The notes under the pieces were generated by a model. The model was not told the origin of the DNA. It saw only the letters and a program-made list of their open reading frames with translations, and did no database searches. Shown here piece after piece: positions 71 through 60,533 of a DNA stretch of 64,000 nt. The position numbers and the translations under genes are program-made. Numbering within the stretch: the first letter of the stretch is position 1; each line of letters opens with the position of its first letter. The stretch comes from Protoeuglena noctilucae (lineage: Eukaryota): assembly GCA_958009085.1 (NCBI GenBank), contig OY253671.1:248001-312000 (forward strand), read 5' to 3'.

Positions 71-3000
71 AACCTGCGCATCAAGAACGAGGAGGTGCAG
101 CGCGCGCTCAGCGACATCGTGGGCCTCCTCGACTCCTACCCCCGCGAGAACACCTCCACCTCGATCCCCCAGTCGGACGTCAACGAGCTCCGGCGCTTCT
201 ACTCGCGCCAGATGTACGAGTCGGTGCTGAAGGCGACCAAGATCGCCTTCTCCGCGATGAAGGAGCGCCTGGCGGGCACGGCCTCGGCCGGTTTCCTGTT
301 CGTGGACCGCCCGTTCTTTGACGTCGACGTCGAGCTCGCCGTGCCCAACATCACGCTCAGCCCGTCCCTGGAGGACATCCAGGTGGCCATCAACGTGACG
401 GCCAAGGAGGTCCTGGCTTGCTCCAAGGAGATCCAGGCCTGGGGGCCCGACTACCCCCCCAACAGCGCTTTCTTTGAGAAGCTGGCCGCAGACCGCGAGA
501 TCGTCGTCTCGGTGCTGCTGCTCACCGGCTCCGTCGAGAGCCTCAAGAAGGAGGTCAGGCGAGTGACGCGCGTGCCCTTGTGCAGTCAGCCACTGTTGTG
601 CGGTGCGGGGGGTGCGTGGCGGTGACCGGTGCTTCCCGAGACGCTCGCTTGGGCCATGCTGCGCCCGCTCTCTCTACGCCGCCGCTTTGGGAACGTGCCG
701 CGCTAAGGCCGCATGCTTCTGCCGGCACACGCCAGGGAGCTGCTTCACAAGCAGCTCGGTCATGCTGCCCTCGTGTTGCACCGACGCCTCGTGACGGCCC
801 TCTCCGCTCGGCCCGCAGGAGCTACCTGTCGATGTTTGACCGCTTCTCGTTCCTGTGGAAGACGGACATGCAGGCCGAGTACGACAAGTTCATGAAGACC
901 AACCCGTCCTTGGAGGCGGTGGAGGTGGAGCTGAAGAAGTACGACGACATTGAGCAGCAGATCACGGTCGTGGCCCCCGTCCACAACATCGGGTGCCTCT
1001 CCATCGAGACCACGCGCCTCAAGACGGCCCTCAGGTGCGGCGGCGGCAGTGTTGGCCGGCGTGCCTGCAAGTTGCGGTCCCGAGTCGGCCCGTACGCAGT
1101 GCCGGGCCGGTAGCGGCAGCCAGCGCGGTGCGTGCCTGGGTTCAAACTCAAACCCTTTCCGCTCCGCCGCTGCGTTTCGCAGGCAGGAGGCTGCGCAGTG
1201 GAAGGCCAAGTTCTCTCAGAACCTGCACGACCAGGCCCAGAAGCAGCTGGACGCGTTCATGGACTACGTGGGCCAGTCGATGAAGCAGCTGGAGAGCTAC
1301 CAGAAGAAGATCACGAAGCTCGACCTGGACGACGTGCGCAACGTCATGATGCTGCTCAACGAGGTCCGCGAGCGCGAGGCCGACATCGACAACACGATTC
1401 TGCCAATCGAGGACATGTACAACCTGCTCAACCGCTTCAACGTCCCGGTGGACAAGGAGGAGCAGGACCAGGTGGCGGACCTGAACTACTCGTGGGAGAA
1501 GCTCCGGAGGCTCGCGGGCGACGTGGCGGACCGGCTGACGGAGCTGCAGGGCGGCTACAAGCTCGACCTCATCACGCACGTGCGCGAGTTCGTAGCCGAC
1601 GTTGCCAAGTTCCGCGAGAGCTGGGAGCGCGACGGGCCCATGGTCGAGGGCCTGGACCCGATGGAGGCCAACAACAAGCTCAACCAGTTCCGCCCCATCT
1701 TCGAGGCGAAGCGGACCAAGTGGCTGCGGTACCAGCAGGGCGAGGAGGTGTTCGGGCTTCCGGTGACCAAGTACCCCGAGCTGGAGCAGACGGAGAAGGA
1801 GATCGAGAACCTGGCGAAGCTGCACGGGCTGTACGTGGAGGTGGTGGAGACGATGGAGCGGTACGGCAGCATGCTGTGGGTCGACGTGGTGGAGCGGCTG
1901 CAGGAGCTGAGCGAGACGGTGGTACTGTTCCAATCCAAGTCGAACAAGCTCCCGAAGGGGTCGCTGCGGACGTGGCCGGCGTACACGGACTGCCGGAAGC
2001 TGATCGACGACATGATGGGCGTCATGCCGCTCCTGGAGGCGCTGGCGAGCAAGGACATCCGCGACCGCCACTGGGAGGAGCTCCAGCGCATCTGCAACAA
2101 GAAGCTCAACCTGGCCGAGGACGTGCTCAAGCTGAAGGACCTGCTCGACTGCCGCCTCCTCGACCACCAGGAGGACATGGAGGACATGGTTTCTGGCGCC
2201 AGCAAGGAGGCGACGATCGAGAAGAAGCTCGCGGCGATCGACAGCGAGTGGTCGGCGCTCGAGCTCGTCTTCGCGACGTACCGCCAGCGCGGCGAGGTCG
2301 TGCTGAGTGTGTCCGACACGGCCGACCTCATTGAAAAGCTGGAGGAGGCCCAGATGAACCTGCAGGGCATGGCGACCAACCGCTACTCGCAGCCCTTCCG
2401 CGAGAGCGTGCACGAGTGGGTCGTCAAGCTCTCCACCGTGTCGGAGGTCATCGAGCAGTGGCTCACCGTGCAGAACCTCTGGACGTCGCTGGAGGTGGTG
2501 TTCGACGGCGGGGACATCGTCAAGTCGCTGCCGCAGGAGGCCAAGCGGTTCAAGACCATCGACGCGGCCTTCATGAAGGTGCGCGGGGGTCACGCGAGCC
2601 CCACCGCTGGCTGCGCTGCGCTGCAATGCAGGCGGCACGATGGACACACCTGGCCCCGCCCAGCGGGCTGCAGAGGTCGCGGATGCCTAACGTCGCTTCC
2701 CGCCCTCCTCCGCAGGTGGTGGCGACGGCGCAAGAGAACAAGAGCGTCATCGAGACGTGTTTCACGAACGAGACGCTCAAGAGCATGCTGCCCAACATCT
2801 CCGAGCAGCTGGAGTTGTGCCAGAAGGCCCTGAGCAGCTACTTGGAGGACAAGCGTGCCGAGTTCCCTCGCTTCTACTTCGTTTCGGACGCGACGCTGCT
2901 GCAGGTGCTGTCGGTCGGGTCGGACCCCGAGAAGGTGCAGCCCCACTTCGAGTCGGGCCTCTTCGACGCCGTCTCGGCCATCACGTTCGACAAGAAGGAC

Positions 3001-6000
3001 AAGACGAAGATCATCGAGATGCAGTCGCGGCAGAAGGAGGTGGTCCCGATGGAGTACCCCGTCGACGCCACGGGTACGATCGAGGTCTGGCTCCAGCGCC
3101 TGGTGGACGGGATGAAGGACACGGTCAAGGCGATCATCAAGCGATCGACGCGCGACGTGGAGTCGCAGCAGCGCGACGAGTTCATCTTCGGCTTCCCGGC
3201 CCAGGTGGCGCTCCTGGGCATGCAGCTGCAGTGGACCGGGCAGGTGCAGTCGGCCCTGGTCTCCGCCAAGACGAAGAAGGACGTCATGAACCAGGCGCAG
3301 AAGCGCGTGGGGCAGGTGCTGTCCGAGATGATCATCCTGACGACGCGCGAGCTGTCGGGCAACCAGCGCACCAACCTCGAGACGGTCATCACCGTCTACG
3401 TCCACCAGCGCGACGTCACGGACGAGCTGGTCAAGAAGCGCATCCGCGACCCGACCGACTTCGAGTGGCTCAAGCAGGCGCGCTTCTACTGGCGCCCCGA
3501 GCAGGACACGGCTGTCATCTCCATCACCGACGCCGAGTTCGAGTACTCCTACGAGTACCTCGGGATCAAGGAGCGCCTCGTCATCACGCCCCTCACCGAC
3601 ATCTGCTACATCACGCTCGCCCAGGCCCTCAACATGTGCCTCGGCGGCGCCCCCGCCGGCCCCGCCGGGACGGGCAAGACCGAGACGACCAAGGACCTCG
3701 GCAACACGCTCGGCAAGTATGTGGTGGTGTTCAACTGCGGCGACCAGTTCGACTACATCTACATGGGCAAGATCTTCCGGGGCCTCGCCCAGTCCGGCCT
3801 CTGGGGCTGCTTCGACGAGTTCAACCGCATCAACCTCGACGTGCTGTCCGTCTGCGCACAGCAGATCCTCTGCGTCCTCACCGCCATCCGGGAGGGCAAG
3901 AAGCGATTCGTGTTCACCGGTGAGCGCCGCCGCGCGACGGCCTGCTGCTTGGAAGCGCTTGGAACACTGCGCCCACGCTTGCACCTGCCGGCGGTGCCGT
4001 GTTTGCTCACCCACGGCGTGTTGACCTGCTGACCTTGCTACCCCTGCGAGCCTCTTCACTTGTTGGCCCTATGATGCGCTTGGCCCTGCCCACCCTGCTT
4101 CCTCCGCTGGCCTCCTGCCAGCTGACCCGCAGCGCGTTCACCTGCCCCCCCCTCCCCCGCCCGCGCCCGCAGATGGCAAGGAGGTGGACCTGGATCCTCG
4201 GGTCGGCTACTTCATCACGATGAACCCGGGCTACGCTGGGCGCCAGGAGCTGCCCGAGAACCTCAAGTCGCTGTTCCGTGGCGTGACGATGATGGTGCCA
4301 GACCGGTCGATCATCATGCAAGTCAAGCTGGCAGCCTGCGGGTACCAGGAGAACAAGATGCTGTCCAAGAAGTTCTTCGTGCTGTACGGCCTCTGCGAGC
4401 AGCAGCTCTCCAAGCAGCGCCACTACGACTTCGGCCTGCGCAACATCTTGTCAGTGCTGCGTACCGCCGGCGCCTCCAAGCGCGCCAACCCGGGCAAGAC
4501 CGAGGACTTCCTCATGATGCGCACGCTCCGCGACATGAACATGTCCAAGTTCGTCTCCGAGGACGTCCCGCTCTTCGAGTCCCTCATCTCCGACCTCTTT
4601 CCGACAGTCACCAACCCGGAGCGCGCGAGCTTCGACGACGTCGAGCGGGCGGTCAAGGAGGTGGCCACCGAGAACGGCCTGCAGCTGCACGGCAAGTGGC
4701 TCAAGAAGTGCACGCAGCTCTACGAGACGTACCTGGTGCGCCACGGCATCATGCTCGTCGGCCCCACCGGCGGCGGCAAGACGGCCATCGCCGAGACGCT
4801 CGCCGGCGCCCTATCCCGCGTCGACCGCAAGCACGTGATCCGCAAAATGAACCCGAAGGCCATCACGGCCCACGAGATGTTCGGGAAGCTGGACAACGCG
4901 ACGCAGGACTGGACTGACGGCGTCTTCTCCGTGCTGTGGCGGAGGGCCACGAAGGACTCCAAGTCCTTCAACACCTGGATCGTGCTCGACGGACCCGTGG
5001 ACGCCATCTGGATCGAGAACCTCAACACGGTGCTCGATGACAACAAGGTGACTTGCGAGCTTGGGAGATGCGCCCCGTCACTGGTGGCCTGCGATGTGTA
5101 ACCTGTGACATGGGACCTGTCACTCGTGGCCTGACTGTGTAGCTGCCTCACCGGCTCTCTCGCTCGCTGGCTTGTCGCTCGCTCGCTCGACCATTGGCGC
5201 TACCTGGCTCGAGTTTCCCCCTAGGCCTGCCAGCCCGCTCCGCCTTGCTGCGTCATGGCCCTTGCCTGGCCAGCCCAGCACGGCAGCTGCCACGCTGCCG
5301 CAGCCCTCTCACCACTAGTGCCCCCCGCGTCCCCCGCAGGTGCTGACGCTGTCCAACGGGGACCGCATCCTCATGACGCCGGAGATGAAGGCGATGTTTG
5401 AGCCTGAGAACCTCAACAACGCATCCCCGGCCACCGTGTCCCGTGCGGGCATCATCTACGTCTCCGACGACGAGCTGGGCTGGATGCCCATCGTGCAGTC
5501 GTGGCTGCGGGAGCGCGAGACCAAGTTCAACAGGCCCCAGGACCGGGAGAACCTCGAGCCGCTCTTCAAGCTCTACTTCGAGGACAAGGAGGTCAAGGAG
5601 CCGTCCAAGCCGGCCTACGTGATCCCGGGCCTGCCCAGCTTCGTGCGCACGGCCTGCAAGCCCGTCATCAGCAACCAGGACGTGTGCCTGGTGCAGTACG
5701 CTTTGGACTTGCTGGAGGCGATGCTGCGCAAGCCGGCCGAGGAGGGACGCCACCTCACGGCCGAGCAGTACGAGCGCCTCTTCCTCTACTGCGCCGCGTG
5801 GACGGTCGGCGCCAGCACGGGCGCCGCGGACCGCCCCCACGTGATGCACAAGCTGGCCGAGCTGGCGGAGCAGGGCAAGCGCCGCAAGCGCCACGCGCCC
5901 CTGCCTCGGCTGGAGGACCCCGAGGACACGCTGTTCGAGTACGTGGTGGACATGGAGAAGTTCGAGTGGGTCCACTGGGCCTCCAAGGTCCCCCAGTGGA

Positions 6001-9000
6001 AGTACCCCAAGGGCGTCGAGCGCCCCGAGTACGCGTCGCTGGTCATCCCGACGCTCGACTCGGTGCGCGTGCAGTACCTCATGCACGCGCTGTGCGGGGT
6101 CAAGGTCCGCGCGGGCGGGGAGGGCAGCAAGGGCCGCCCCGTGATGCTGGTGGGCGAGCCGGGGACCGCCAAGTCGACCGTCGTGACGTCGTTCATCCGG
6201 GAGCTCGACCCGGAGCGCCACACGTCCAAGATGATCACCTTCTCCTTCCTCACCAAACCCCGCATCTTCCAGACGGCGATCGAGTCGTCACTCGAGAAGA
6301 ATCCGGGCCGCATCTTCCGCCCGCCCGGCGGCAAGCAGATGGTGGTGTTCATCGATGACATCTCGATGCCCGAGGTGAACGAGTGGGGCGACCAGATCAC
6401 GAACGAGCTCGTGCGGCAGCTGTTGGAGGAGGACGGGTTCTACCAGCTGGAGAAGCCCATCGGCGACTTCAAGAAGGTCGAGCGCCTGTGGTACTTCGCG
6501 GCCATGAACACGCCCGGCGGGGGCAAAAACGACGTGCCCAACCGCCTCAAGCGGCAGTTCGCCATCATCAACGTCCCGCCGCCCTCGCGCGCCGCCATCA
6601 ACAACATCTTCGGCACCCTCGTGTCGGGCCGGTTTGACCCCAGCGCGTTCGACGCGTCGGTGGCCGAGGTGGCGGGCCGCCTGGTGCCCATGACCATCTC
6701 GCTGTGGAACGCCATCACGCGCAAGATGCTCCCCACGCCCGCCAAGTTCCACTACCTCTTCAACATCCGCGAGCTGTCCAAGGTCTTCCAGGGGGTCATC
6801 CTGGCCACCACCGAGCGGTTCCGGGCTAAGCCGGCGCAGGGCATCGTGCCCCTCGGCGGCGGCGCCGTCACCACGGCCGGCGGCTACCTCCTCGCGCTCT
6901 GGAAGCACGAGTGCGAGCGCGTGTTCGTGGACAAGCTCGTCAACGCCGACGACAAGGCCTGGGCCGAGAACAAGATCACCGAGCTGGCCGTGGAGGCCTT
7001 CGGGGCCGCGTCCGAGGAGGTGGCGCAGATCAAGGAGCCGGTCTACTTCGTCGACTGGCTCCGTGAGCCCGTGGAGGATCCCGAGACGGGAGAGATCCTC
7101 GACGCGCACCCCTCGTACTACGAGGCGGTGCGCGGGGGGCTGAAGGAGATCCGCGAGCGCGTGGAGAAGAAGCAGGGGGAGTTCAACGAGACGTCCCGGG
7201 GTCTCAAGATGGAGCTGGTGTACTTCGACGACGCGCTCATGCACCTGATGCGCATCACGCGGCTGCTGGCCATGGCGTGCGGCAACGGGCTGCTGGTGGG
7301 CGTGGGCGGGTCGGGCAAGCAGAGCCTGGCGCGCATGGCGGCGTACATCAGCGGGGCGTTCACGTTCCAGATCACCATCACCAAGACCTACAGCGAGAAC
7401 AACCTGTTCGACGACCTGAAGAACCTGTACAAGACGGCGGGCCTCAAGGGCAGCAAGGTGTGCTTCCTCTTCACGGACGCCGAGGTGAAGCGCGAGACGT
7501 TCCTCGAGTACATCAACCAGGTGCTGATGACGGGCGAGGTGGCCGGGCTCTTCCCGAAGGACGAGATGCAGGCCATCGTGGCCGACATACGCCCGGTGAT
7601 GAAGAAGATGTCGCCGCACACGGCCGACACGCCCGATAATCTGTGGAACTTCTTCATCAACCGCGTGCGCGAGAACCTCCACGTCATGCTGTGCTTCTCG
7701 CCGGTGGGCGTGAAGTTCAGCCGCCGCGCGCAGCAGTTCCCGGGGCTCATCAACGGCTGCACCATCGACTGGTTCATGCCGTGGCCCGAGGACGCGCTCG
7801 TGGCCGTGTCCGGCAAGTTCATCGGCGACTTCGCGATGGCCTGCGACGACAAGGTCAAGCGGTCGCTGCAGCGCATGATGGGCGGCGTGCACGTCCGCGT
7901 CACCAAGGCCTGCACCGAGTACTTCGAGCGGTTCCGGCGCCACGTCTACGTGTCGCCCAAGTCGTACCTGTCGTTCGTGAACGGGTACAAGGACCTGTAC
8001 GCCGCCAAGTGGAAGCACGTGATGAGCCTGGCCAGCGCCATCAACGCGGGGTTGCAGAAGATGAAGGAGGCGAAGCAGGACGTGGACAAGCTCAAGGAGG
8101 AGCTCAAGGTCATGAACAAGGAGGTGGAGGTCAAGTCGCGGCAGGTCAAGGAGCTGCTGCAGACCATCTCGGAAAAGACGACCATCGCGGAAAAAGAGAA
8201 GCAGAAGGCGAACGCGATCGCCGACGCGGCCAACAAGCAGGCGACGGAGATCGCGGCGCAGGAGGCCGAGGCGAACCGCGACCTGGCCGCGGCCGAGCCG
8301 GCGCTGCAGGAGGCCGAGCGCGCCGCGTCCTCGATCGACCCGGCCGACGTTAAGAAGGTCATGGGCATCCGCCCGGCGCCGCCGTCGCTCGTCAAGCGCG
8401 TGTTCGACTGCGTGCTCCTCCTCAAGCACAACCGCGTGGCCTCGCCGCTCCAGTACGAGATGAACGACAAGGTCAAGACGCTCGAAATGGATGGCACGGT
8501 CTCCAAGGCCACGGTCGCCACGGAGGTGCCGGTCGCGTCGTGGGACGAGTCGATGCGCCTGGACCCCGGCAAGGTGCCCGAGGACATCACCTCCTTCCTG
8601 GAGCGCGGGTACATCAACGACGAGGTCATCGAGCTCATGTACCCGTACGTGCGCACGGAGGACTTCTGGCCGCTCATCGCCAAGGGCTCCGCGAACGCCC
8701 TCGAGGGCATCTGCGGCTGGGCGCGCGCCATGGTCAAGTACTACAACGTGGCCAAGGTGGTGGAGCCCAAGCGCGAGGCGCTGCGTAAGGCGCAGAACCA
8801 GCTCAAGGCGGCGATGAAGGAGAAGGCGACCGCGGACGCGACGCTCGCGGAGGTGCAGGCGCAGGTGGACGCGCTGCAGCGGCAGTACGACCAGGCGATG
8901 AAGGAGAAGGGCGAGCTGGAGGACCAGGCCAACATGTGCGAGCGCAAGATGGACGCCGCCGCGAACCTAATCGGGGCGCTGTCCGGCGAGGAGGCGCGGT

Positions 9001-12000
9001 GGAACAAGCAGAGCGCCGAGTTCGACGACACGATCCAGCGCCTGGCCGGCGACTGCGCGCTGGCGTCGGCGTTCGTGTCGTACCTGGGCCCCTTCAACAA
9101 GGAGTTCCGCGACCTGCTGCTCAAGCGCGAGTTCTACAAGGACTGCCTCGAGAAGAACATCCCCGTGACCAAGAACATGAACGCCACGCAGTTCCTGGTG
9201 GACGACGCCGAGGTCGGCGAGTGGAACCTCGACGGCCTGCCCACGGACGAGCTGTCGGTGCAGAACGGCATCATGGTGACGCGGGCGTCGCGGTATCCGG
9301 TGCTGATCGACCCCCAGGGCCAGGGCAAGGCGTGGATCAAGAATCGCGAGGCGCGCAACCAGCTGGTGGTCACGACCATCACCGACAAGTACTTCCGCAA
9401 CCAGCTCGAGGAGTGCATGTCGGAGGGCAAGCCGCTGCTGATCGAGAACATCGAGGAGGAGCTGGACCCGGTTTTGGACCCCGTGTTGGAGCGCCGGATC
9501 ATCAAGAAGGGCCGTTCGATGATCATCCAGCTTGCCGACAAGGAGGTGGAGTTCGACCCGCTCTTCCGCCTTTTCTGCACCACGCGCCTCCCCTCGCCGC
9601 ACTTCAGCCCCGAGCTGAGCGCCAAGGTGACGGTGGTGGACTTCACGGTCACGCTCGAGGGCCTCGAGGACCAGCTGCTGGGCAAGCTCATCCTGAAGGA
9701 GCGGTCGGAGCTGGAGGAGCAGCGGAAGAACCTATTGGTCGAGGTGAACGACTACAAGAAGAACATTAAGCAGCTGGAGGAGTCGCTGTTGTACCGGCTG
9801 TCCAACTCCCAGGGCAACCTGCTGGACGACACGGAGCTCATCGACGTGCTTGCCAACACCAAGAAGACGTCGCAGGAGGTCAACACGAAGCTGCAGGTCG
9901 CGAGTGAGACGAACGAGAAGATCACGGAGGCCTGCGAGGAGTTCCGCCCCGTGGCGCACCGCGCCGCGCTCATCTACTTCCTCATCGCCGAGTTCTCGAC
10001 GGTCAACCGCATGTACCAGACGTCGCTGAGCCAGTTCGAGGAGCTCTACGACCACGGCATCGACCGGTCGGAGAAGGCCGTGATGCCGAGCAAGCGCATC
10101 AAGAACATCATAGACTACTTGACCTACTCGGTGTTCCTCTACATCCAGCGCGGGCTCTTCGAGCGGCACAAGATGATCTTCGCGCTCATGCTCACCAACA
10201 AGATCCTCGTGTCCGCGGGCGAGATCAAGCAGGCCGAGGTGAACATCTTCCTTAAAGGCGGCTCGGAGCTCGACATCAACTCGGTGCGCGTGCAGAAGCC
10301 GTCCGGGAAGGGGAAGGGCGGCGAGTCGTGGATCTCCGACACGGTCTGGCTCAACCTCGTGGCCCTGTCCGAGATGCGGGCCTTCTCGGACCAGTCGGGC
10401 ACAGGCACCAAGGGCATCCTGGACTCGGTGCGCCAGAACGAGCAGCTGTGGAACGCGTGGTACGACAAGGAGGCCCCGGAGGCCGAGCAGCTCCCCGAGT
10501 ACGCCAACCACATTTCGAGCTTCGAGCGCATGTGCCTGGTGAAGGCGTTCCGCGAGGACCGCACGCTCATCGCGGCCGAGGAGTACATCGCGGAGGCGCT
10601 GGGGCGGCAGTTCGTGGAGAGCGTGCCGCTGAACCTGGAGAAGGCCTGGGAGGAGTCGGCGGCCAGCGTCCCGCTCATCTGCATCCTCAGCCGCGGCGCC
10701 GACCCGACCAAGCTCATCTCGGACCTCGCGCGCAAGAAGAAGAAGGAGATCCTGGGCGTGTCGATGGGCCAGGGCCAGGAGATCATCGCGCGCGGGCACA
10801 TGAAGACGGCCACGGAGGAGGGCCACTGGGTGCTGTTACAGAACACGCACCTGGGCTTGAAGTACCTCAGCGAGGTCGAGGAGCTGCTGGTCAAGGAGTT
10901 GGACAAGTTCCACCCCGAGTTCCGCCTCTGGATCACCGCGGAGCCCACGGATGGGTTCCCGATCGGCCTGCTGCAGCTGTCGATCAAGATCACGTCGGAG
11001 GCGCCCATGGGCATCAAGGCCGGCATGCGGTCGAGCTACCAGTGGGTGTCCCAGGACATGCTGGAGGCCGTGCCGCGGCAGGAGTGGCGCCAGCTGCTGT
11101 ACATCATGTGCTACGTGCACTCGATCGTGCAGGAGCGCCGCAAGTTCGGCCCCATCGGCTGGAACATTCCCTACGAGTTCAACCAGTCGGACCTGTCCGC
11201 GTGCGTCCAGTTCCTCCAGAACCACCTGCTGGAGATGGAGGGCAAGAAGGCCTCGCAGCCCACCTGGGAGACGGTGCGGTACATGATCTCGGTCATCATG
11301 TACGGCGGGCGCATCACGGACGACTTCGACCAGCTCCTGATGAACACGTACGCCGACCGGTACTTCAACCAGGCCGCCATGGCCGTCGGCTACGAGCTGT
11401 TCAAGGACGTCAAGGCAGGGTTCAGCTACGTGGTCCCGGACTCCACGGAAATCGAGCCCTTCCGCGCCGCCATCGAGCTCTTCCCGTCCCAGGACAGCCC
11501 GGAGATCTTCGGCCTGCACTCGAACGCGGACCTGACCTTCCGCACGATCCAGGTCAACGACGTGATCAACACGATCATCGACACGATGCCCAAGGCGGGC
11601 GGCGGGTCGGGCGGGGAGTCGCGGGAGGACAAGGTGGACCGCCTCTGCCAGGACCGGCTCGAGAAGGTGCCGCCCGTGTTCGAGCGGGAGGACATGATCA
11701 AGAAGATCTCGAAGCTGGGCGAGCGCGAGCCGCTCACCGTGCACCTGCGCCAGGAGATCGACCGGCTCAACATCGTCATCAACCTGACGCGCAAGACGCT
11801 CCAGAACCTCCGCCTGGCCATCGCGGGCACCATCATCCTCTCCCCGGACCTCGTCGAGGCCCTCAACTCCCTCTACGACGGCCGCGTCCCTCCCATGTGG
11901 GTCGGGATGTCCTGGGAGTCTTCGGGCATGGGAACGTGGTTCTCGGGCCTCATCAACCGCTACGAGCAGCTCCGCCGGTGGCTCGACAACGGCCGGCCCA

Positions 12001-12452
12001 AGTCCTACTGGCTCACGGGCTTCTTCAACCCCCAGGGCTTCCTCACCGCCGCGCTGCAGGAGGTCACGCGCGCGCACGCGAAGACCAAGGACAAGTGGGC
12101 GCTGGACGACGTCGTCATGGAGTCGCAGTGCACGGGCAAGAAGGTCGAGTCCCTCGGCGCCGCGCCCCAGGAGGGCGTCTACGTGCACGGGCTCTTCCTG
12201 GACGGCTGCGCCTGGTCCGACCGCGACGGCCGGCTGGTCGACGCCGAGCAGAAGAAGATCGTCAACCCGCTCCCGGTGCTCCACGTCACCGGGACCGTGT
12301 CCAAGAAGCGCGAGGGGACCTACCAGTGCCCCACGTACCGCGTCAAGAAGCGGACCGGGCTCAACTACATCACCAAGTTCGACCTCCGCACGGACGACCC
12401 GGTGTCCAAGTGGATCCTCCGAGGCGTCGCTCTGCTCTGCTCCATCGATTAG
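71..12452 (+). CDS. ODA2: Axonemal outer-arm dynein heavy chain, gamma type (DNAH5/8 class); 5' partial. Exons 71-558, 819-1034, 1183-2578, 2716-3919, 4173-5047, 5340-12452
   Basis: AAA1 motif GGAPAGPAGTGKTETTKDLGNTLGKYVVVFNC..GLAQSGLWGCFDEFNRINLDVLSV; FITMNPGYAGRQELPENLK; P-loops GPTGGGKT, GEPGTAKS and GVGGSGKQS; coiled-coil stalk; C-terminus WILRGVALLCSID*. Exons join in frame at GT/GC-AG sites. Confidence 0.93.
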
Positions 12453-41485: not shown

Positions 41486-42009
41486 CCTGCAGTCCACGGA
41501 TTTGGCTACTGGAGCTGCTATCCCTGCGCGTCCCCCTGCCCTGTGCACAGGCCGAAAATCCACTTCCGCGATGCAACGTACGATCGATGTCCTAAGTCGC
41601 GTTGTCGTGCGCAGCACTTCGGGACCTCTAAGTAAGACCAGGCACTTCAAGGCCCCGGCGCAGCGTAGGAAACGCACTCGAGCGCAGCGCACGAGGCTGA
41701 AGGAACAGAGGGCAACGAGATCACTGCACAAACAGTCGCAGAGCAGCGGTTAGCACCGCGCATGCTACGAATGGCAAATCCACATGCATCACATCACATG
41801 TCACCGAGGCCCCACCCCGCTGGTGGGAGCGCTTGACTATGCTACGACAATCGCAGGCTTGCTAGGTCGCTACGCAGCGGGCTCTTGTCCCAAATGAAGG
41901 CGCCCTCTGTGACGATCACAGAGCATATCATGCTGTGAGCATTGGTGTCCATGGCGCCGTCCTATGCCAGGTGACAATTCGCCCCTGCTGCCCGCCCTCG
42001 TTTACATGC

Positions 42010-45000: not shown

Positions 45001-45360
45001 TGACGCGGGAGTAACGAGAGTCACACACGCGTGTTCAGGGGCCGCCGAGGGGGCGGCAACGTCGCGCACGGACGAACCTCTGCCAGCGGCCCACGAACTT
45101 GCTTCTTCTTGGCCTTCCTCCTCAGAGACTTCCTCTGCGATTTGGACATCCTCTCCCCTCCCTCCCCCGACGCCGTGAGTCGCACCTGCGCGCACCATCG
45201 CCGGCGGATCAGGCCCTACGGTCCAGTCCAGCATGCCAAGCGCCGACCCGGGCCCCGCCGGTGCGCATCGCACCTGCAAGATGTCTTCATGCGACCCTTT
45301 CGCGTCCAGGGTCACCCTAGACACCGCGGCGTCGGTCGGCGGGGGCGCGATGGGCTCCAT
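42010..45360 (-). CDS. Pro-rich, largely disordered protein with two CEP164-type WW modules
   Basis: PTEEEIAEHAKFLGMRPGDDSELLWIAEQALCAPVPDGWK..YTHPLDRDYRALV and EVTMMATYLGMEPSNEPLLMWIARQAVLAPLPEGWEEL..HPLDSVFRML; last exon ..VASLLGVKP* followed by TGTAA. Confidence 0.7.
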
Positions 45361-45825
45361 GGGCGTTCACGTCGGCGTGCCCTCACCGGCCCACCCCGCC
45401 TTCTGGTCCGCCGGCAGACGAGGACCACGGATATGTCAAGCTAGCACAATCGAGGTCACGGCGACGCGGCTCTCGGGCTCGCGGGAGCCGGTCAACTGAA
45501 GTTATATTTCTCTCAACTGCCGCGATCTGCCAGAGCTCTGGCGTGCGTTGCGCATGGCACGTGCATCGCACCGTGCGCCGCGATAGATCAGGAGGAAAGC
45601 AAATGGCCGGCTGCGCCAGTTCCTTTCGCTGCACGCACTGCTGGATGCTGGGCCCTTTATTGGGTCATACAGCACACGACGTGTTCGAGTAAAGCCCATC
45701 CGCGTCAATTATCGAGAGTAGGGTCCTTTCAGTCACCACGGCTGTGGACTCGTGCCGCAGCTTGGCCGTCTGCATGTGTTGCATGCTGCTGCCGCACACT
45801 AGGCAGCGATCATCCGGGTCAGTTC

Positions 45826-47681: not shown

Positions 47682-47967
47682 CCTGCGCCCAACTCCCCAG
47701 ATATCCTGGGATGTCCTTGTCCGTCCGCTCCTGATCGTCGCGAGGAGAAGCTGATGTGCTTGCCAGGACGTCACAACGAAGTTGAATGCCAATCGGACCC
47801 GCGCGCCCTCAAATTTCGCCGTCCTGCTGCCCGGTAAACACGCTTCTGATGTGCTGCACCAGCCCAATGCGCGGCTGATTCCCCGGCAAGGGCGCTGCGA
47901 GGTGACCAGTAGCTGTCTGAATTGCGCATGGTTGCCTGGAGTCGCACGACAGCACGCGACGCATGGC

Positions 47968-50633
47968 ATGGGGGCATCGAAAAGGCGTCGGAATCGTGGC
48001 GAGGAGAGGGCGCCTGAGGACCACTTTGACGATCCCGCTGAGGTACTGACGAGTGCTTTCCGTTTGTCAAAATTGATATCGCGGAGGCCTGTTCATTTGG
48101 ACGCGCCGCAGCGACGCAACAGTCCCTCCGTCCTCGCAGGCCTTGGGTGATCGCGGGAGGGCTCATTGGCGACATGAGGGCGACGGCGACCTCGTAGGGA
48201 AAAGTTCCGATGTGAATGGAGCCACGGCTGGCGGGCACGACCCTCGCTGCGAGGGCGAGGGAGCATGCGGCGGTCAGGAGGCCGGCACGGGGCCGGACGG
48301 CGACGACGCGCAGCCGCGGCGCGGAGCAAGCGCAGAAGCAGAAGAGCCCTCCACATCAGAACCCGCAGAAACTGCGCGGCCGTCCCGCAAGCTCCAGCGC
48401 CAGTGCTTCCCCTACGGCAACTACCACCGGTGACGACCTGCGCGCAGTGGATGGCCAGCAGTCGACTTTGGAGCATTGACAGGCATCGAAGCCTGCGCTG
48501 GTATCGCAGATCTGTGACATGCAGCGGGCGCCTCGTCGCAGGTACTATGGCTATCGCCCGTCTGGGGCGTTTGACCTGGACCCGCGGTTGGGGTCCCTCC
48601 GGGCAGAGTGGGTCCGAGGGAAGCGCTGCATTGACATCGGGTGCCACCAGGGCGTGGTGGGCCTTGCCATCTGCCTGCACTTCCTGCCCCAGTCATATGT
48701 TGGCTACGACATTGACCCAGTCTTGGTCGACCGCGCTGTCAAGTCCCTCACCTGGGAGAGGCGAGGGCGGCTGTGGCTGGAGAATGCAGTGCGCGTGAGG
48801 AGTGACGTGCTGTGGTCGATTTGCGCTGGGACATTGCGAGAGTGCCACCCACAGGGCATGTGTTGGCATTGTCGGGATACCCCTTGATGCTCTTGCGCCT
48901 CGTGTGCTGCACAGGAAACGTTTGAAGGCTGCGCTGAGGGCGGGGGAGGAGCAGCCGCCTCGGAAGGCACGGCGGGTGACGACACCAGAGCCGACAGACG
49001 GGGCCGCAGGTGGCGGTGCTTGTGGGGACGGTGCTTGTGATGACGAAGTGGGTGTTAGGCCAGGCGAAGGAGATGCAGGGAACGGCGCTGGAGGTTGCCA
49101 TGGGAACGGCCACTCTTTGGGGCAGGATGGGTTGGGGCCAGTGCCGGGGGGCGTGGGAGAGGATGGGATGGCGTTGCAGGGCGGGGCACGCACAGAGGTG
49201 GATGCGGAGGGTGCGGCAGCGGGCGAGGGTGGTAACGGTGGCGGGGAAGGGTGCAGTGGGATGGGGGGTCATGCACCTGGAAATGGAAAAGGACAGGGTG
49301 TCATGTGGGCTCACGGGATGGCAGATGGGGAATGGCAGGGTGGGATGGGTGGGATGGCTCACGTGACGGCAGATGAGGCGCAGGGGGGTCCGAGCCCAAC
49401 GGCTCCGACTGCAGAGGAGCAGATTGAGGCTCTACGGCGTGTGCGGTTCGTGTGGTGAGCGTCGATGTCGATGCGGTCCTTTCGGGATTGTGGCGATATC
49501 GGGGGCAGGTGCAGCGACACATGACACGTTTGCTGTGGTATATCTCTGAGCTGACAGCTGACAGCTGAGAGTACCACGAGCGTGATGTTTTGTCACCATG
49601 GCGATGTCATCGATGGTCGCTGCGATGCAGGACCTCCAGCCCACTCGTGGCCCCACGTCACGTTTCTCTCCCGGTCCCCGCAGCACGAATTTTGTGGAGG
49701 CGGACGTGAGGCCCGGCTCAGCGGACCTCGTGCTGTGCCTGAGCGTCGCGAAGTGGATCCACATCAACTTTGGGGACGCAGGCCTGACGGCGGCCTTCCA
49801 GAAAATGGTCGACGCTCTCGTGCCGGTGAGGTGTCGTGCATGAAACCATTGCTTGACTGCAGCCCTGGGTTGCGAGCGTCGTTGCGTGTCGTATGGCCAG
49901 GCGGCGCGTAGCGAGCAGTGACTGCCGATGCTGGCTGCACGTGGCTTCGTTGCCCCACGCCTGCCTCTTGCAACTACCACACTTGCCCTCCCCCCACACC
50001 TCGACCGCCCCTCCCCGCCGTCGCCGTCGCCCCCAGGGTGGTGTCCTCATCCTGGAGCCCCAGCCTTGGAAGTCCTATCGCCAGGCATTCCACAAACAGA
50101 ATATGGCCGTGGTCCCGCACTACCGCCTGCACGAGCTGCACCTGCGGCCCGAGGGTTTCCCCCAGCTGCTGTCAGGGATGGGCATGGCGCTGATGGCTAC
50201 CATGACCCCACCGGGGGCGGAGGGGGGCTTTGCGAGGGAGATGCAGGTATACGTGAAGGGAGCGTCGGTGGGGGTGGAGATGGGGCGGGTCGAGGAGGCG
50301 AGTGGAGCGGGTGGGGTGGCGCAAGAGGGAGAGGGTGCAGGGGCAGGGGCGGGGGGGGGAGGGGGAGGTGACTGGAGGGGGTGCGGGGGTGACGTGAGTG
50401 GAGGTGCAGAGAGGGATACTAAAGCGCGTGAGGCTGGTCGTATCGTCATCGCGTTTGCGGTCACTCTTGATGTTGAAAGGGGGCTATCGAGCGGTAACAC
50501 ACACACGGTGGGTGAGGGGCCACCTCCACAACGACTCCTGCCACTAACAATGCAGCGAACGTCGACAGCTGACAACTCCCATCGCGCCCTTGATGGCCGC
50601 ACATCTCGCTGTCTTACATCCTCCCCTGCGTGA
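47968..50633 (+). CDS. MEPCE: Bin3/MEPCE-family RNA methylphosphate capping methyltransferase; 3' end uncertain
   Basis: FPYGNYHR|YYGYR..DPRL..IDIGCHQG..GYDIDPVLV; DLVLCLSVAKWIHINFGDAGL..|GGVLILEPQPWKSY..LRPEGF. Confidence 0.85.
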
Positions 50634-50769: not shown

Positions 50770-50969
50770 NNNNNNNNNNNNNNNNNNNNNNNNNNNNNNN
50801 NNNNNNNNNNNNNNNNNNNNNNNNNNNNNNNNNNNNNNNNNNNNNNNNNNNNNNNNNNNNNNNNNNNNNNNNNNNNNNNNNNNNNNNNNNNNNNNNNNNN
50901 NNNNNNNNNNNNNNNNNNNNNNNNNNNNNNNNNNNNNNNNNNNNNNNNNNNNNNNNNNNNNNNNNNNNN
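50770..50969. other. Assembly gap (200 N)
   Basis: Run of n; a THO2 exon (KGSPVRGAGDEGG..REE) runs into it. Confidence 1.
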
Positions 50970-53900
50970 TTTCTCCTCGCGTGCGCCTCTGTCCTCACGA
51001 ACCCCCTTCCCTTCCGCAGGCAGCTTGCGACCACCCTCATCCCCCGCCCCGCGCACAGGCGACCCTTTCTGCGGCGAACAAATAGCCAATGTACAGTTGC
51101 AAAACCCTCTAAGTCTCCCCTGACACACTCCCGTCGCACGCAAAGAAAGCATTACTAGCGCTATGACAGTACCTAATTGCTCGCACATCGTGGCTGTCCC
51201 ACTCCTCGATGCCCCTCACCTGCCCCTGCGCCCCGTCGCCGTTCTCCCTCCGCCCATCGCCCCTCCCATCCTCCCCCTTGCCACCCGCCCCGTCACCCTC
51301 AGCCCCCTTCTTAGCAGCACCCGCGTCCTTCGCATTTCTCCCCGGCTCCTCCATAGTAGAACCCACCGCACTGTCGCCATCTCCCTCTCGCGCCCGCTTC
51401 GCCGGTCGCTTTGTCGGTGCACCCTCCGCCGACCCCGCCTCTCCGCCCTCGCCCTCTGTCCGCTTCGTCCCCGCACCCGCTGCGCCCCCCGTGCCCTGCG
51501 CCGCTGCTTTGCTGGCCGCCTGGGCAGCCCTCTGGGCGTTCTGCTGAGCGGCGGCCTGCGCGGCCATCTGCGCGTTAAAGAAATGGGGCAGAGAGTTGCA
51601 TAGTCACACAAGCTAGGTAATTAGACTGTGCTGCTTTGATCTGTGTGCCCATGCACTTGCGCCGCCCATCCCGCAAGCCCCCATGCTGCCATGCCCCCAC
51701 CTAACAAGCCCCCATGCTGCCATGCTCTTATATCCCCACCCCGCCCTCACCGCCTCCAGCTTGGGGAATCGCTTCACCAGGTTGCGCATGCACGTCTCCG
51801 CCGCCACACGGATCCTGCGGTCAAAGAGACGCGATAACATCGATTACATGCGACGTTACAGGGGCGGCCATTGAAGCAGTTAAGAAAACCCAGTTCGATA
51901 ACCAACGGGCATCTGCACCAACAGCTGTCCCTACCACTGTCCCCCATTCCCAGCGGCCCCCGCCCCTCACCCCTGCGCCCCTCGTTTCCGTGCGTCCGTC
52001 TCGAGCCCGATGCAGGTGGCCAGGAGGAGCCGCGCCTGCTGCTCGGCCTGGGGGAAGACCGAGAGCTTGTTGAGCAGCGCGAGGGTGCTGTTCTGCAGCA
52101 CGGGCTCGGGGGACTTGAGGCACGCCACGAACGATCGCATGGCGTCGCGCTCCCATCGGGACGTGGCTTGGATGAACCAGACGTGCGGGGTGCGCTCGCC
52201 CTCGACGGGCGCGAAGCACTTGCTGAAGCCCACGAGGGCCTTGCACTCCCGGTCGTACACCTGCGGCGGGAAGGGGGTTACAGTTGCGGTCGCGAGGGGG
52301 TCAGTGACACAGTCACAAGCGTCAACACTTGTGTCAAAAGGGTCATCACTGCCACTCGTGGCATGACTGGCACGACATCCCCCCGAACCATGGACCATGC
52401 AACCCACAGCGTGACATCCAGATCGATATCGAGTCATTAAGACCGTCCCAGCCACCACTGGTCGCGCCCCCCCAGCCACTCGCCTCTTCCGACGCGGCCC
52501 ACCGCGCCTGCTCCCTCAGCAGCAGGTCGATGAAGAAGGTCACGTGCATGACCTCGAGGTCCGTGGAGCCGAACAGCATCTGCGGGACCTGCCCCAGGCA
52601 CTTGCCGAAGAACGACAGCGTCGAGAAGTGCGGGGTGCCGATGGCGTTCATGGTCAGCACGAAGTGGGCGCAGAAGAGCGCATCCTCCGCGGACAGCAGC
52701 GCCCGGGGCCATATGCAGTGCTGGAGCAGGGCCGTGGGCACCGCCCGCACGCTCTCCTTGCTGTCGCCTCGGAACCACCCCCCGCACCGCGCCTGCAGCA
52801 TGCTGCGCACGGCCGCGACCACCTTCTCCTGCCGCGCGCTCTCCCGCGTCAGGTGGTCCACCCGGTCCTGTGCCGCACGCAGGGCAGCCGCGCCCTCACG
52901 CCGTTGCGCGCTCCCGGAGGACTGGTGCTCGGCATGGGCCTGGCTCAGGGCCTCCTTGGCTGCGGAGGGGGAGGAGATAGTCGCAACTGGGTCGAAGTGC
53001 CAAGCCAGGGGCGTCTTATCAACACAGGCTGTCTTCTGTCGTGTTGTGCGGGTGCGTGCAGGTGCGTGCAGGGTGCATGCAGGTGCGTGAGGATGCAACG
53101 CAGCCGCCGCGTCGCCCCCACGTCGTCTCACCGGCGGCGATGGCGCGAGAGTAGGACTCCCTGGGGTAGTGGATGTCGCACAGACTGAGCGACCAAAAGA
53201 TGGCGACAAAGTCCGGCGTCAGTGCCTCCCATGCGTTGGCGTGGTCGCCGTCGCTCAGGGCCTCTCTCACGCGGTCCCTCATGCGCTCGTATCGCTCCTC
53301 GATCTCCGCTTGCTGCGGCGGGGAGCAGGACGGGCAATAACGACGGGGTCCATGCACCATGGACACTGTCGATAGAATGTGTTGTTAGTGAAGCATAGCT
53401 AGAGGACAGACATTGGTAATACTACCGATCCTGTCATGCACATCCCGATACACTGCTGCCAGTGTGCGCCTCTTGTCTGTGTGCGTGCGGGTCGGAGACA
53501 CGCGCTGTGCATATTTACGGCTTCCAGGAACCCTCAAAAGCCCCCACTGTTAACAAATGTCACCTTGTCGGGCTCGATCGGCGGATTGGCGGTTCCCGGC
53601 GGGGGTGGCGGCGCGCACTTGCGCAGGAGAGGCCGGTGGACCATGAACGCGACCTCGGGCTCAATGCCGTAGGTGTGGATGAGGTCTTTAAGGGAAGGGA
53701 TGGCCTGCAAGGGGAAGCTTGGGATCGGGAGTGACGCACACAGCTGAGGAGGGGCGGTGGCATGTGGCACGGGGGAACAACAGTGCCTACAAGCAAAGCA
53801 CCGTGCGCATTTGCCATGAGAGCGGCAATGCCACCACCACCACCACCACTACCCATACCAGGTAGTCACAACACCGCTTCGGGCTTGCATGCCCGCACTC

Positions 53901-56900
53901 AGCGCCACCAACCCCCCGTAGACAGTCGCACCACCGCCTCACGCTCCCACGCCCGCACTCACCGCCTCGAGTCGCTCTCCCTGCAGCCCCATGTGCAGGA
54001 CCTTCACGTACTGCACCAGCGCCAGCAACGCCTCGTCCATCTGCGCCATGCGGACCCGCAGGCCGGAGATCTCGGAGTCTGCGAGCAGAGGTGCTTGGTG
54101 TTAAATGACTGTGTCGGCAAGTAGAGGCGATGCATGGTGGCATGACAATGCAAGCCCGGCCCATTGCTGGATGACACAAACTACGATTCATGTCCGAGCC
54201 TCGCTGTGCTCGCGTGCCCAACCTTGGACATGACTGCCCCCCAGGTCCGCTCACCGTCGCAAATGATGTCGCGCAGCTGCCCCAGCAGCACCAGGATGGG
54301 CGTCAGCAGTCGCTCCCTTGGCCCTCCCGCCTGCAGCGCGTCAATCAGCAGCCGCGGGAGCTGGGCGGGCGGTCGCGCGAGGGTCGTGGACACGGCTTGG
54401 ATTAGGATGGGACCACCGCCCAGCGCGGCCAGGAGATCCTCGCCGTTGGATTCACAGAAAGGGATGCCCGTCATCTCACTGCGAAGAAGCGAGCGGGCGG
54501 GGCGGCTGATGGGTGCTGGTGGGGTGGCAATGGGTTTGGGCGAGGTGCACGGCGCGGCGTGGCTGGGGCGGCGGCGAGTCTTGGCATCTCGCCCGCGCCA
54601 TGCATCGTGTTTCTGACATCTTCCCCATCCTCGAGTCTCGCCTGAGGACGTTGCTCAGGACCCAGACGCCCTCGTTGATGGCGGTGGGCTCTGCCTTGGA
54701 CGTGCCGGGGTTGAGGACGAAGCTGTCCGACGATCCCTTCTTGAGCCTGCGGGAAGTCGAGAGAAGGGCAAGGGTCGCCTAATTGGCAAAGGACGGTGCC
54801 CCTGTAACGCGCTGGACAAGGAACGAGCGGCGCTTGTTCGTAGTAACTAACAATCGCATAGGATCATGCGTTGTTGTCGCCGCCAAATGACACAGCGCGA
54901 TTAAAAAAACCAAAGCGCTCACCTGTTCGCCACATACTGCAGGATGGCGGGCAGGTGCACGGTGAACTCGGTGCCCCGCTTGCAAATCTTCCCAACCATC
55001 GTCGCCAACGCCTCCACCCAGTCCTTGCCCCCCAGCTCTACCGTCTTTTTGGCTTTGCTGGCCGACAGCCGCGTCAGCAGGCCGTGCACCACCACGTCCT
55101 GGCCCAGGGGCGTTAGCAGGCTCAGGCATTTGACCACCGTGTCCATCAGGGCAGGGAAACCCTCCACCTGCGTGGGTGCGGGTGCGGGTGCGGGTGGGTC
55201 GGGTGTATGTTTCGAGGAAGCGCCTACCTTCGCGGAGCTCACATCCACAATGAACAACGGTGCGTGTGCGATGCCAGCATCGTAGTGTCTTGGGTCTCAA
55301 CTCATCCCTCTCATCCCTGTAACCCCCGCCACCCCTCAAGCGCCCACTGCGCCCCTTTCCCTCGCCTGGCTGAGGATGAGCTCGGCGGCCTGGAGGGGCA
55401 CGGCGGCCGCCGCCCTCGCCACAGCACGGTTCTTGACCTCGGCCTCCTCCTCAGCACGTTTCCGCTCCTCACGGTCCGCCTCGGCGACTCGGATGGCGCT
55501 GAAGCGCTTCAGCACGCGGCGGAGCTCCTTGTGCGCGCGGCCGATGGCGCCCTCGACCAGAGGGTCCACCAGGGGCATGCGGGACTGCACCTCGCTGTAC
55601 AGCCTGCGGGGAGGGAGAAGGACGGGGGCTGTAGAGGGTGCAAGAGGACCAGTGATATGTGGCGAGTAATGTTGATGGACCACCCGTGACTACATGGCAC
55701 ACAAGGCGCGATAGACGGACGGCACCACTGCGCGCAGGCATGCGCATCGCGAGCGAACGGGTCGCTGGGGGTCCCTTTGCAACCCGCGCTGTGCCCCTCT
55801 CCCCTCCTCAGTCGTCACAGCTGGCCCCTCGCCTGAAGCGCTGGGTGTAGGGCATGAGGCTCACGACGTCCCAGACCTCCCAGGCCAGGGCGGCCATGGC
55901 GGGGCGAAGGGCGATGGCAGGGAAGACGCATGAAACCAGGATGCCCTCCACCTCCTCCTGTTGGGCCTTGGCGGCGGCGACGGCGGGGTTCTCGACGTCC
56001 GTGAGGCCCGGGAACACCCCGGTGCGGAGCCAGGGCTGGCAGCGGGTGAGGAGGAGGTGGCGTAGGATGCGGCAGACGCGGGGCACCAGGCGGACGCTGC
56101 GTGCGATGTGGAGGCCGCAGGCGCGGATGTCGTCGAGGATCGAGTCGGGGAGATCGGGAAGGCCCGCGGCGGCCTCTGCGGGGGCGGGGAAGGGCCGGGG
56201 TGGTGGACGGCGGGCGGCTCATGCGATGGGAGGGTCACAAGGCAGCAGTGACGGGCTGGGACGATGACTGGGGTGCCAAAGAGCAGGGGCTGTGACTAGC
56301 ATCGCCCGGCTGCGGCTAGCTACCAGTTGCACCGCCGCAGGGAGGGCGATAGTGGTGACTAGTGGCTTACTTGGGTACTGAGCCCACTTGTTTGGGGATC
56401 GGTAGTCGTCGAGCAGACACCGTCCGTGCCTCAGGGACCCTCCGTGGAGTGCCAAATGGAACTCCTCCGTCTGCAAATGAGAGACAGCAGCCACGATGGG
56501 GTGAGCAACACGCTAGAAGGGCGACGCTGTGTAACAGTCCAGGCATCGATGCGACACGGCAGCCTCCCAGCACCCTTCCAAAAACATTCCCGCCGCTTCC
56601 TGTCCAGCCATGTCCCATCGACGAAACGGCGCGCATGCTGAACACCTCAAGCGGGTCAAGCGCTGCAAGCGTCAACCCTGCTCCCAGCCTCGCCTTGCGC
56701 TCCAAGCACGCACACATGCCCGTGGCCACCTCTGGCCACAGCAGGAGCTGCACTTTCTGCGCGTGGAGCTTGCGCAGGATGCCGGCGGCTTCGTCCCACG
56801 CCCCCAACTCCAGCAGGGCCGCCACGAGGGCTGCCTTCTGATCCACGGGCGGGAGCTCCTGGAGGGCAGCCGTCGTGACCTGCGAGCGATGGTTGGTGAA

Positions 56901-59155: not shown

Positions 59156-60533
59156 ATGACCGAGGAGGGCCAGCTCAAGGAAGAGGAGGTGGACGTGGCG
59201 CACGCAGGAGTAAAGAGGGCAGCCGAGGGGTCGGAGGAGGAGGAGGGCGCGAAAAGAGCGAAGACAGAAGCTGAGGACCAGGTGCGGCTGAGGACGCCAC
59301 AGGATGAGAGCATGGCGGATGCGTGGATGCAAACGAGCGTGTGCTTCGCGTTCCCTGTGGCGCAGATATCTTTGGCGCTGAAGAAGATTGCCGCCCACAT
59401 CGGGAACGAGAAGAAGTTCTCCAAAGCGTGCGGGCTGCTCACGCAGCTGCTCCACCAGCCCGGGGCCTTGCAGAAGGGTGCGTAGCGCTCCCGGCCGCGG
59501 CTGGTGGCCAGCAGGCCCGCGCTCGCGCTTGCTGATGGCCAAACCACCGGCGTTCTCTTGCAGGCCACGCGAATGCGCTGTTCGACTGCGCCGTAGCCGC
59601 GTTCAAGGACCCCGAGCTGCCCATTCGCGATGCCACGCTGCGCAAGGAGTTCCGCAAGCTCGTCGAGGACGTAGCGGCGCGGGCGGAGGTCCTGGAGCCG
59701 TGGCAGATCAGCGCCGTCGCGCAGGTGTACCGTCTGGTGTATTCACTGCGGCTGCAGCTCTTCACGGACGACAGCTTCGCCTTCTCGAAGATTGTCAAGG
59801 ACGTGCAGGCCGCCGTGGAGGTCCTGCCGTCCGTCTCCGACGACGATAAGGCGCAGCAGGTGCGTCGCGCGTACTGCTTTGCATGCGACCACACGTGGGC
59901 GCCAGGCGCTGAGATGAGTGCGCTTCGTTTCGGCTCCTCGCAGGAGGCACACAGGGTCGGGTGCAAGCGCCTCTTCCCCGCACTCGCCGAGCGCGTGCGG
60001 CAGGAGGCAGACCCGTTTGATGTGGAGGGCGCGATGGCGGGGGGGCGCGACGGGGACGTGTTTGGGATCGGGGAGCTGGCGGGCGCAGACACCGGTCTGT
60101 CGCTGAAGGAGATCGTTGGGGCGCGGCAGGAGGCCGTGCTGTTGTGCTTTGAGGCGATGCGGGAGATGTACCAGAAGCAGTGGGCGAAGGCGACCGTGGA
60201 CCTGGCGTTTCAGTTCTTGCTCGACCACCGCTCCAGGTTCTGTGCCGTGCAGCAGGACCGCATCACCAAGCTGGGGGCCTTCAGGCGAGCCATCGCAGCC
60301 CGCTGCAGCCCTGGGTTACAGCGTGCACCTTCCCAGCTTGCGAGCATGTGCAGCGTCTCGATGCTTGCAGCAAGGAGCAGAAGGCACGGCGGCGCATGAG
60401 CGGGGGCGGGCCGTCTGACATCGGGAGCGTGGAGCGTGCGGCGAAGGAGTGGTCCAAGCAGGAGTGGATCTCGAAGCGAGGGGCCGTGGGCGGGAGCAAG
60501 TCGGGTGGCTCCAACTACAACTGGCTCGGATGA
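59156..60533 (+). CDS. Uncharacterised protein, apparently conserved in the green lineage
   Basis: ISLALKKIAAHIGNEKKFSKA..LFTDDSFAFSK..DPFDVE..WAKATVDL..SRFCAVQQDRI..ISKRGAVGG..WLG*. Resembles a plant protein of unknown function as I recall it; not verified. Confidence 0.7.

Follow-up and report, generated by a model that had tools for sequence, protein, structure and literature searches.

The stretch of DNA discussed here, referred to below as the window, comprises 64 kb of the genome of Protoeuglena noctilucae (contig OY253671.1 of GenBank assembly GCA_958009085.1, positions 248,001 to 312,000 of the forward strand), and its feature of interest is the spliceosomal introns that start with GC instead of GT and end with AG. 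Its 19 genes contain ~126 curated introns, 28 of the GC-AG and 98 of the GT-AG type (22% GC-AG). A preliminary description made from the sequence had listed 19 GC-AG introns and estimated their share at approximately 15% of 120-130 introns. The excess of GC-AG introns in the window is confirmed to be real, and the observation is stronger than was claimed; the estimated rate was too low, if anything. At least one GC-AG intron is present in 14 of the 19 genes, which are of many housekeeping kinds, and the median lengths of the two intron types are similar (102.5 nt for GC-AG and 108.5 nt for GT-AG).

The G+C content is 65.5% across the window, i.e., above 60% as in GC-rich algal genomes, a figure that holds for the window only. 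In a dynein heavy-chain gene, an open exon of 7.1 kb has a G+C content of 97.7% at the third codon position (GC3), so that coding frames are easily followed. The single assembly gap in the window, a run of 200 N, is located at 50770-50969. The spliced model of the UBA3 gene aligned end-to-end with green-algal orthologues, i.e., at 64% with those of Coccomyxa and Parachlorella and at 62% with those of Symbiochloris and Chlorokybus, which places the source among the green algae. Two candidate lineages, Pseudoscourfieldia and Chloropicon, were discarded because they are poor in introns.

GC-AG introns in the genes of the window

All 19 introns in the preliminary list have GC and AG ends on the strand of the gene to which they were assigned and, as had been described, nearly all (18) have an AG|GCRAG donor; the exception is the intron at 46782-46867 with TCG|GCAAG. 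Independent support was obtained for ten of them, eight are backed by the gene model described below, one is plausible, and none was refuted. Nine further GC-AG introns were identified. In total, 12 GC-AG and 26 GT-AG introns were independently validated (12/38 = 32%).

Five GC-AG introns were found to be cut out exactly in RNA, and the borders of the remaining 23 are based on homology or on the gene model. The RNA evidence consists of contigs that were compared with positions 29000-48000 and come from four runs (X1 to X4) of a single marine metatranscriptome study. This region includes 13 of the 19 claimed introns, and all statements on joints in the RNA concern 15 listed joints out of 46. 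Among 14 of these 15, nine are GT-AG and five are GC-AG, each with a single GY-AG placement, and the four claimed introns that have a joint were all spliced as GC-AG rather than from GT donors. The first of them, at 29524-29622 (- strand), is skipped exactly in contigs of X1, X2 and X4, in the sole GY-AG placement. The other three, at 46531-46651, 46782-46867 and 47139-47223 (- strand), are in an NAD-binding, SDR-like gene at 45829-47495; for the last one, the cut was moved by one position within three ambiguous letters. Removal of the seven RNA-defined introns from this gene yields one open frame of 309 amino acids. The fifth, newly identified intron, at 42889-42990 (- strand) in a WW-domain gene, has a joint in X1, X2 and X4, and only one of seven possible cuts gives a GY-AG placement.

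Sampled words of the segment 30000-38000 were present for 18-46% in runs X1 to X4 and for 98-99% in four runs of an organism designated 'organism A'. In run X3, identity to the window is no more than 95-99% for 86 of the 113 contigs matching 29000-48000, and the sample appears to contain a close relative or a divergent strain. Contigs of all four runs also contain a joint at 44474-45882 that skips 1407 bases with GT..GA ends; eight extra letters are present between its two sides, of which the shorter one measures 20 letters. A chimeric contig, a junction in an untranslated region, or read-through between neighboring genes could explain it.

Seven other GC-AG introns were validated by homology, for which only single-exon sequences were used as references. 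The dynein heavy-chain gene (1-12449, + strand) contains five introns within its first 1400 residues, followed by the 7.1-kb intronless exon. Two metagenomic orthologues, L001 (3293-8617) and L002 (3296-8650), are 77 and 69% identical, respectively, have ~62.5% G+C, and are intronless over residues 3-1800. When they are aligned with the spliced model over these residues, all five junctions are free of gaps for 20 residues on either side, including that of the GC-AG intron at 559-818 (+ strand), for which a ban on the donor cost the gene model 8.3 nats. Since L001 and L002 are intronless, either this lineage gained the five introns or the relatives lost them. The three GC-AG introns of UBA3, at 35477-35603, 35920-36032 and 36838-36916 (- strand), are supported by alignments with three orthologues, in all of which the seven junctions of this gene (three GC, four GT) are gap-free within 12 residues on either side; across the last of the three, the ThiF profile continues from position 85 to 90 over the exons.

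The EMC1 model is collinear with a homologue of 932 residues (P0242). Its intron at 22465-22549 (+ strand) separates positions 1-80 of the Pfam profile EMC1_C, which reach the end of the upstream exon, from positions 82-185, which begin at the start of the next exon; the junction is gap-free relative to P0242 with 15 of 25 residues identical. A second, newly identified EMC1 intron, at 20198-20339 (+ strand; 9.2 nats), is similarly in a collinear, gap-free alignment with P0242, but identity at the junction is only 5 of 25. In the gene for a phytoene-dehydrogenase-like enzyme with flavin adenine dinucleotide (FAD), where four homologues support six junctions, these homologues span the junction of the intron at 24969-25068 (+ strand; 13.3 nats). 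Each of them has an indel nearby; within 12 residues on either side, three have one gap and one has four. Finally, the newly identified THO2 intron at 52261-52483 (- strand) interrupts the Pfam profile Tho2, of which positions 40-191 run to the exon end and positions 194-281 start with the next exon. Pfam profile coordinates are also continuous across four GT introns.

Four more GC-AG introns, all new, were predicted in THO2 on the - strand, i.e., 54479-54641 (8.9 nats), 55168-55365 (10.5 nats), 55604-55832 (9.5 nats) and 56471-56693 (8.5 nats). They are located within a collinear high-scoring segment pair with P0121, a distant fungal THO2 protein, which supports the frame and not the exact border for the first of them and is gap-free at low identity for the second. 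P0121, the only homologue that the search for THO2 retrieved, is too divergent for fixing borders, and a metagenome search with a THO2 exon found no relatives. Because the assembly gap falls within what is predicted to be the region of the last intron of this gene, the 3' end of the model is unreliable.

The gene model is the evidence for the introns in a PPR-protein gene at 15242-15489 (11.3 nats), 15607-15825 (11.8 nats) and, newly identified, 13980-14128 (CAG|GCGAGG, 13.6 nats), all three of which are on the - strand and survive a 10^4-fold prior penalty (9.2 nats) on GC donors. The same applies to the introns at 30791-30876 (8.6 nats), 31198-31282 (7.6 nats) and 60285-60370 (12.4 nats), and to a new one in a trypsin-like protease gene at 40353-40436 (12.0 nats), all on the + strand. 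The weakest of the claimed introns, at 41282-41384 (- strand) in an NAA30-like acetyltransferase gene, is plausible: once its exons are joined, the frame is open from an ATG up to and within the GNAT exon. It is missing from the parse of the gene model, which wrongly fuses two genes there. For the earlier labels 'MEKHLA', 'SDR' and 'pTAC3', no Pfam match was obtained on single exons, the 'pTAC3' gene giving PPR repeats only.

In a gene at 26351-29113 (- strand) encoding a protein with a DRY_EERY domain, found in a family of alternative-splicing regulators (E=1e-4, one exon), all nine curated introns are GT-AG. A Bin3/MePCE-like methyltransferase gene at 48216-50569 (+ strand) has at most five predicted GC donors between the exon for S-adenosylmethionine binding and the Bin3 exons.

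Gene model and curated count

The gene finder is a generalised hidden Markov model with 3-periodic coding states and semi-Markov introns that reads both strands. With T and C scored neutrally at donor position +2, it predicted 146 introns, 49 of them with GC donors, and it recovered 18 of the 19 claimed and nine of the ten RNA-confirmed introns. When GC donors were given a prior penalty of 2.3, 4.6 or 9.2 nats, 39 of 138, 32 of 138 and 21 of 135 introns, respectively, retained a GC donor, and forbidding all GC donors cost the model 370 nats. A self-consistent model with two donor classes predicted 147 introns, of which 42 are GC, and recovered all 12 validated GC and 24 of the 26 validated GT introns. 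Thus, the bounds of the GC-AG share are 16-29% (21/135 to 42/147). Banning single donors cost 7.5-12.4 nats for the eight claimed introns backed by the model, 7.5-13.6 nats for all 15 GC introns of this kind, and 2.1-13.3 nats for validated GC introns.

The curated set was derived from the final parse. Of its 42 GC predictions, 15 were dropped as refuted or ambiguous, and the claimed intron at 41282-41384 was added, giving 28. From the 105 GT predictions, nine were removed that were dubious on account of acceptors other than YAG, odd donors, merged genes or the N-run, and two validated introns missed by the parse were added, giving 98. The predicted GC donors kept out of the count are those of 18190-18242, 26437-26545, 26692-26898, 62134-62363 and 63408-63457, and five in the Bin3 methyltransferase gene (48255-49414).

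The possibility that the GC-AG introns are artefacts of gene modeling, i.e., that nearby GT donors are the ones truly used, has to be considered in this context, since the neutral model does overcall GC donors and seven of its predictions were refuted. The evidence used for this was RNA contiguity, homology or alignment of paralogues, and it ruled out the predicted GC introns at 23313-23542, 32665-32785, 41045-41147, 41282-42163, 44029-44166, 44181-44279 (44042-44257 in the two-class parse) and 44835-44903. None of these seven has the full AG|GCRAG consensus: five are devoid of the GCRAG core and two of the A at -2. As 12 GC-AG introns are pinned by RNA joints or residue-level homology and every refuted call lacks the full consensus, we regard such an artefact as exceedingly improbable. 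The donor motif AGGCRAG occurs 47 times in the window as compared to 27.0 +/- 5.3 times in shuffled sequences, none of 100 shuffles reaching 47, and when the list of these occurrences was compared with the curated set, 27 were found to be credible donors. The corresponding GT motif, AGGTRAG, occurs 21 times as compared to 10.9 +/- 3.3 times in shuffles.

Donor sequences and intron copies

The curated GC donors have a highly uniform sequence, with GCRAG in all 28 and an upstream AG in 27. Hence, they are of the AG|GYRAGT type and do not resemble the U12 box RTATCCTT. As the credible GC set was partly picked for GCRAG, only the tests within the validated set of 12 GC and 26 GT donors are non-circular. 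In this set, AG is found at +4/+5 in 12/12 GC donors vs. 12/26 GT donors (p=0.0011), the combination of G at -1, a purine at +3 and AG at +4/+5 in 12/12 vs. 10/26 (p=0.0003), and A at +3 in 4/12 vs. 1/26 (p=0.027). The mean number of matches to the U1 consensus outside +1/+2 is 5.42 for GC donors and 4.13 for GT donors (p=4.5e-5). Once the T at +2 of the GT donors is added, total pairing is about equal in the two classes. Thus, GC donors keep the other positions and GT donors lose -2, +4 or +5, so that total complementarity to U1 is approximately constant in both types. The GT donors are themselves GC-shifted, with G at +3 in 92 of 98 and GTGAG, GTGCG and GTGAC as the main forms.

The presence of C at +2 is strongly dependent on context. 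AG|GYRAG donors comprise 27 GC and 15 GT, whereas all other contexts together hold 1 GC and 83 GT (Fisher p=1e-15); for validated introns only, the GC:GT ratios are 11:2 and 1:24, respectively (p=7e-7). Within the consensus context, C makes up 64% at +2, close to its share of 61% among the pyrimidines, C/(C+T), in the interiors of introns (12 kb; binomial p=0.75), and C and T are in this sense nearly neutral; since the ab initio GC set was chosen for the consensus, this equality is suggestive rather than proven.

These proportions bear on the idea that selection maintains GC donors precisely because they are weak and permit regulated or alternative splicing. This has been proposed for mammals, in which Churbanov et al. 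(2008, PMC2490688) describe conversions of GT to GC donors and link the accumulation of GC donors to alternative splicing. The window resembles the mammalian case in that homologous introns swap GT and GC in situ (see below). It differs in that the C share fits mutation bias and matches the neutral expectation, whereas the mammalian conversions are ascribed to selection for alternative splicing (PMC2490688). Moreover, the GC donors are spread over 14 of 19 genes with housekeeping roles of many kinds, and no alternative joint was seen at a GC-donor site among the 15 joints listed. Selection of this kind is therefore improbable as the cause of the excess.

A difference between homologous introns is found in a tandem-repeat gene at 32033-34305 (+ strand), which encodes a Gly/Asn/Gln-rich protein with a signal-peptide-like start and contains short introns in each repeat unit. 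Its GT-AG intron at 32707-32785 aligns over the full 79 nt with the claimed GC-AG intron at 33661-33739 (both + strand; ~82% identical; 8.2 nats for the latter), and the match of an RNA contig stops at the exon end at 32707. The donors are GTGAGG and GCAAGG, respectively; thus, T/C at +2 is coupled to G/A at +3. The other two claimed introns of this gene, at 33005-33086 (9.9 nats) and 33322-33403 (7.5 nats), both on the + strand, have a length of 82 nt and are 100% identical, which indicates a recent duplication or gene conversion. Because they are identical, they should be counted as one event.

Mobile elements offer another route to many GC-AG introns, as these could be copies of an introner-like element with a GC donor. 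Putative introner elements of Pelagomonas have GT or GC donors (bioRxiv 10.1101/2021.10.25.465678), and the five dynein introns are absent in two relatives. In an all-against-all blastn of the 138 predicted introns, similarity of real length (58-82 nt) was found only among copies within the tandem-repeat gene. No introner-like family across genes emerged from this comparison, which gave two between-gene matches of 17 and 23 nt. For the window, the introner explanation is thereby largely refuted, and we give it very little credence. With ~126 introns in 19 genes, the window organism is intron-rich, unlike Micromonas or the pelagophytes.

GC pressure, the spliceosome and related systems

In animals and plants, GC-AG introns make up ~1% of all introns and have a stronger consensus at the remaining donor positions. 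Such compensation at GC-AG donors was reportedly described by Thanaraj and Clark in 2001. The introns in the window are like these ordinary U2-type GC-AG introns with respect to their AG|GCRAG donors and enhanced complementarity to U1, and unlike them in that their frequency is 20-30 times higher and that C is at least as frequent as T in full-consensus donors.

High frequencies are known from GC-rich algae. For Micromonas pusilla, Iwata & Gotoh (2011, PMC3033335) report a share of 22.2%, and for Micromonas RCC299 one of 2.7%; their values for Chlorella sp. and Aureococcus anophagefferens are 7.7 and 39.6%, respectively. The preliminary description had mentioned elevated GC-AG use for some non-green protist lineages; as Micromonas pusilla and Chlorella sp. 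are green algae, such use is not confined to non-green lineages. Values of ~14-17% are given for pelagophytes, with ~14% in Pelagomonas and 14-17% in newer annotations of Aureococcus (bioRxiv 10.1101/2024.10.30.620910), and 56% of 241 curated junctions are listed as GC-AG for Emiliania huxleyi (PMC4028052). The window shares with Micromonas, Aureococcus, Chlorella, Pelagomonas and E. huxleyi a high G+C content, GC-AG introns in the tens of percent, the AG acceptor, their spread over unrelated genes and the similar lengths of GC and GT introns. In the literature searched, no account of such an excess was found for a marine green alga rich in introns, and this absence is weak evidence. That GC-AG introns abound in GC-rich algae, green ones included, and that the cause is puzzling has been in print since 2011. 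Iwata & Gotoh relate the shares loosely to G+C content, describe U1 5' ends as canonical and regard the cause as an enigma (PMC3033335).

The most probable explanation, in our opinion, is a GC-biased pressure on donor position +2, at which the choice between T and C would be almost neutral as long as all other positions of the site pair with ordinary U1. The GC-AG introns would then be U2-type spliceosomal introns of the ordinary kind, in a marine green alga that is both GC-rich and intron-rich, and a strong bias of mutation or fixation towards GC would have caused +2 to drift from T to C. A C at +2 would be tolerated, as a near-neutral variant, only if -2A, -1G, +3R, +4A and +5G are all intact, and the GT donors would have lost pairing at -2, +4 or +5 instead. 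Recognition would be by canonical U1 and U6, and the excess is presumably driven by biased mutation (or biased gene conversion) and not by selection. The proposal in the preliminary description that GC pressure turns T at +2 into C is supported by the base composition of the window, the GC3 of the dynein exon, the 27:15 ratio of C to T with its similarity to intron interiors, and the T/C difference between the paralogous introns.

Several points weigh against this explanation. Micromonas RCC299 has 64% GC and yet only 2.7% GC-AG introns according to the same survey (PMC3033335); thus, GC content alone is not predictive, and a lineage-specific factor may contribute. The selection of part of the credible GC set for GCRAG has been mentioned above, and the ratio of 11 C to 2 T in validated consensus donors is above the neutral 61%, if not significantly so (p=0.09). 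Furthermore, the RNA joints considered are only 15 of 46, and a single 64-kb window cannot give a genome-wide rate.

An altered spliceosome, e.g., with a variant 5' end or modification of U1, or with changes in U1-C, U6 or Prp8, might read GC as well as GT and so enable its spread. The fact that C is at least as frequent as T in consensus donors (27:15 overall and 11:2 when validated) would fit such a change, and so would the differences between Micromonas strains, which GC content alone leaves unexplained (PMC3033335); base modification or proteins of the U1 small nuclear ribonucleoprotein (snRNP) are suggested in that survey as possible causes (PMC3033335). In contrast, the GC donors demand perfect pairing elsewhere in the site, as canonical U1 would, and relaxed recognition predicts otherwise; the U1 5' ends reported for Aureococcus and both Micromonas strains are canonical (PMC3033335). 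A search of the 64-kb window with Rfam gave no hits, and thus no small nuclear RNA. On balance, an altered spliceosome is unlikely. An equally doubtful, more specific version is that C and T at +2 are fully equivalent to the spliceosome when the other six positions pair, with a lineage-specific change in the U1 snRNP, U6 or Prp8, and not GC pressure alone, beneath this equivalence. If that were true, thousands of GC-AG introns would be expected genome-wide, more than are known from any other intron-rich organism of the green lineage.

The GC-AG excess in the window opens no new question. In practice, it mainly calls for caution in gene annotation: since 14 of the 19 genes have GC-AG introns, gene finding that allows GT-AG introns only would disrupt the reading frame in most multi-exon genes of this genome. 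With GC pressure as the probable cause, the window would also offer a clean view of how donors evolve under such pressure, in which a site may lose the T at +2 or some of the pairing at -2, +4 and +5, but not both.

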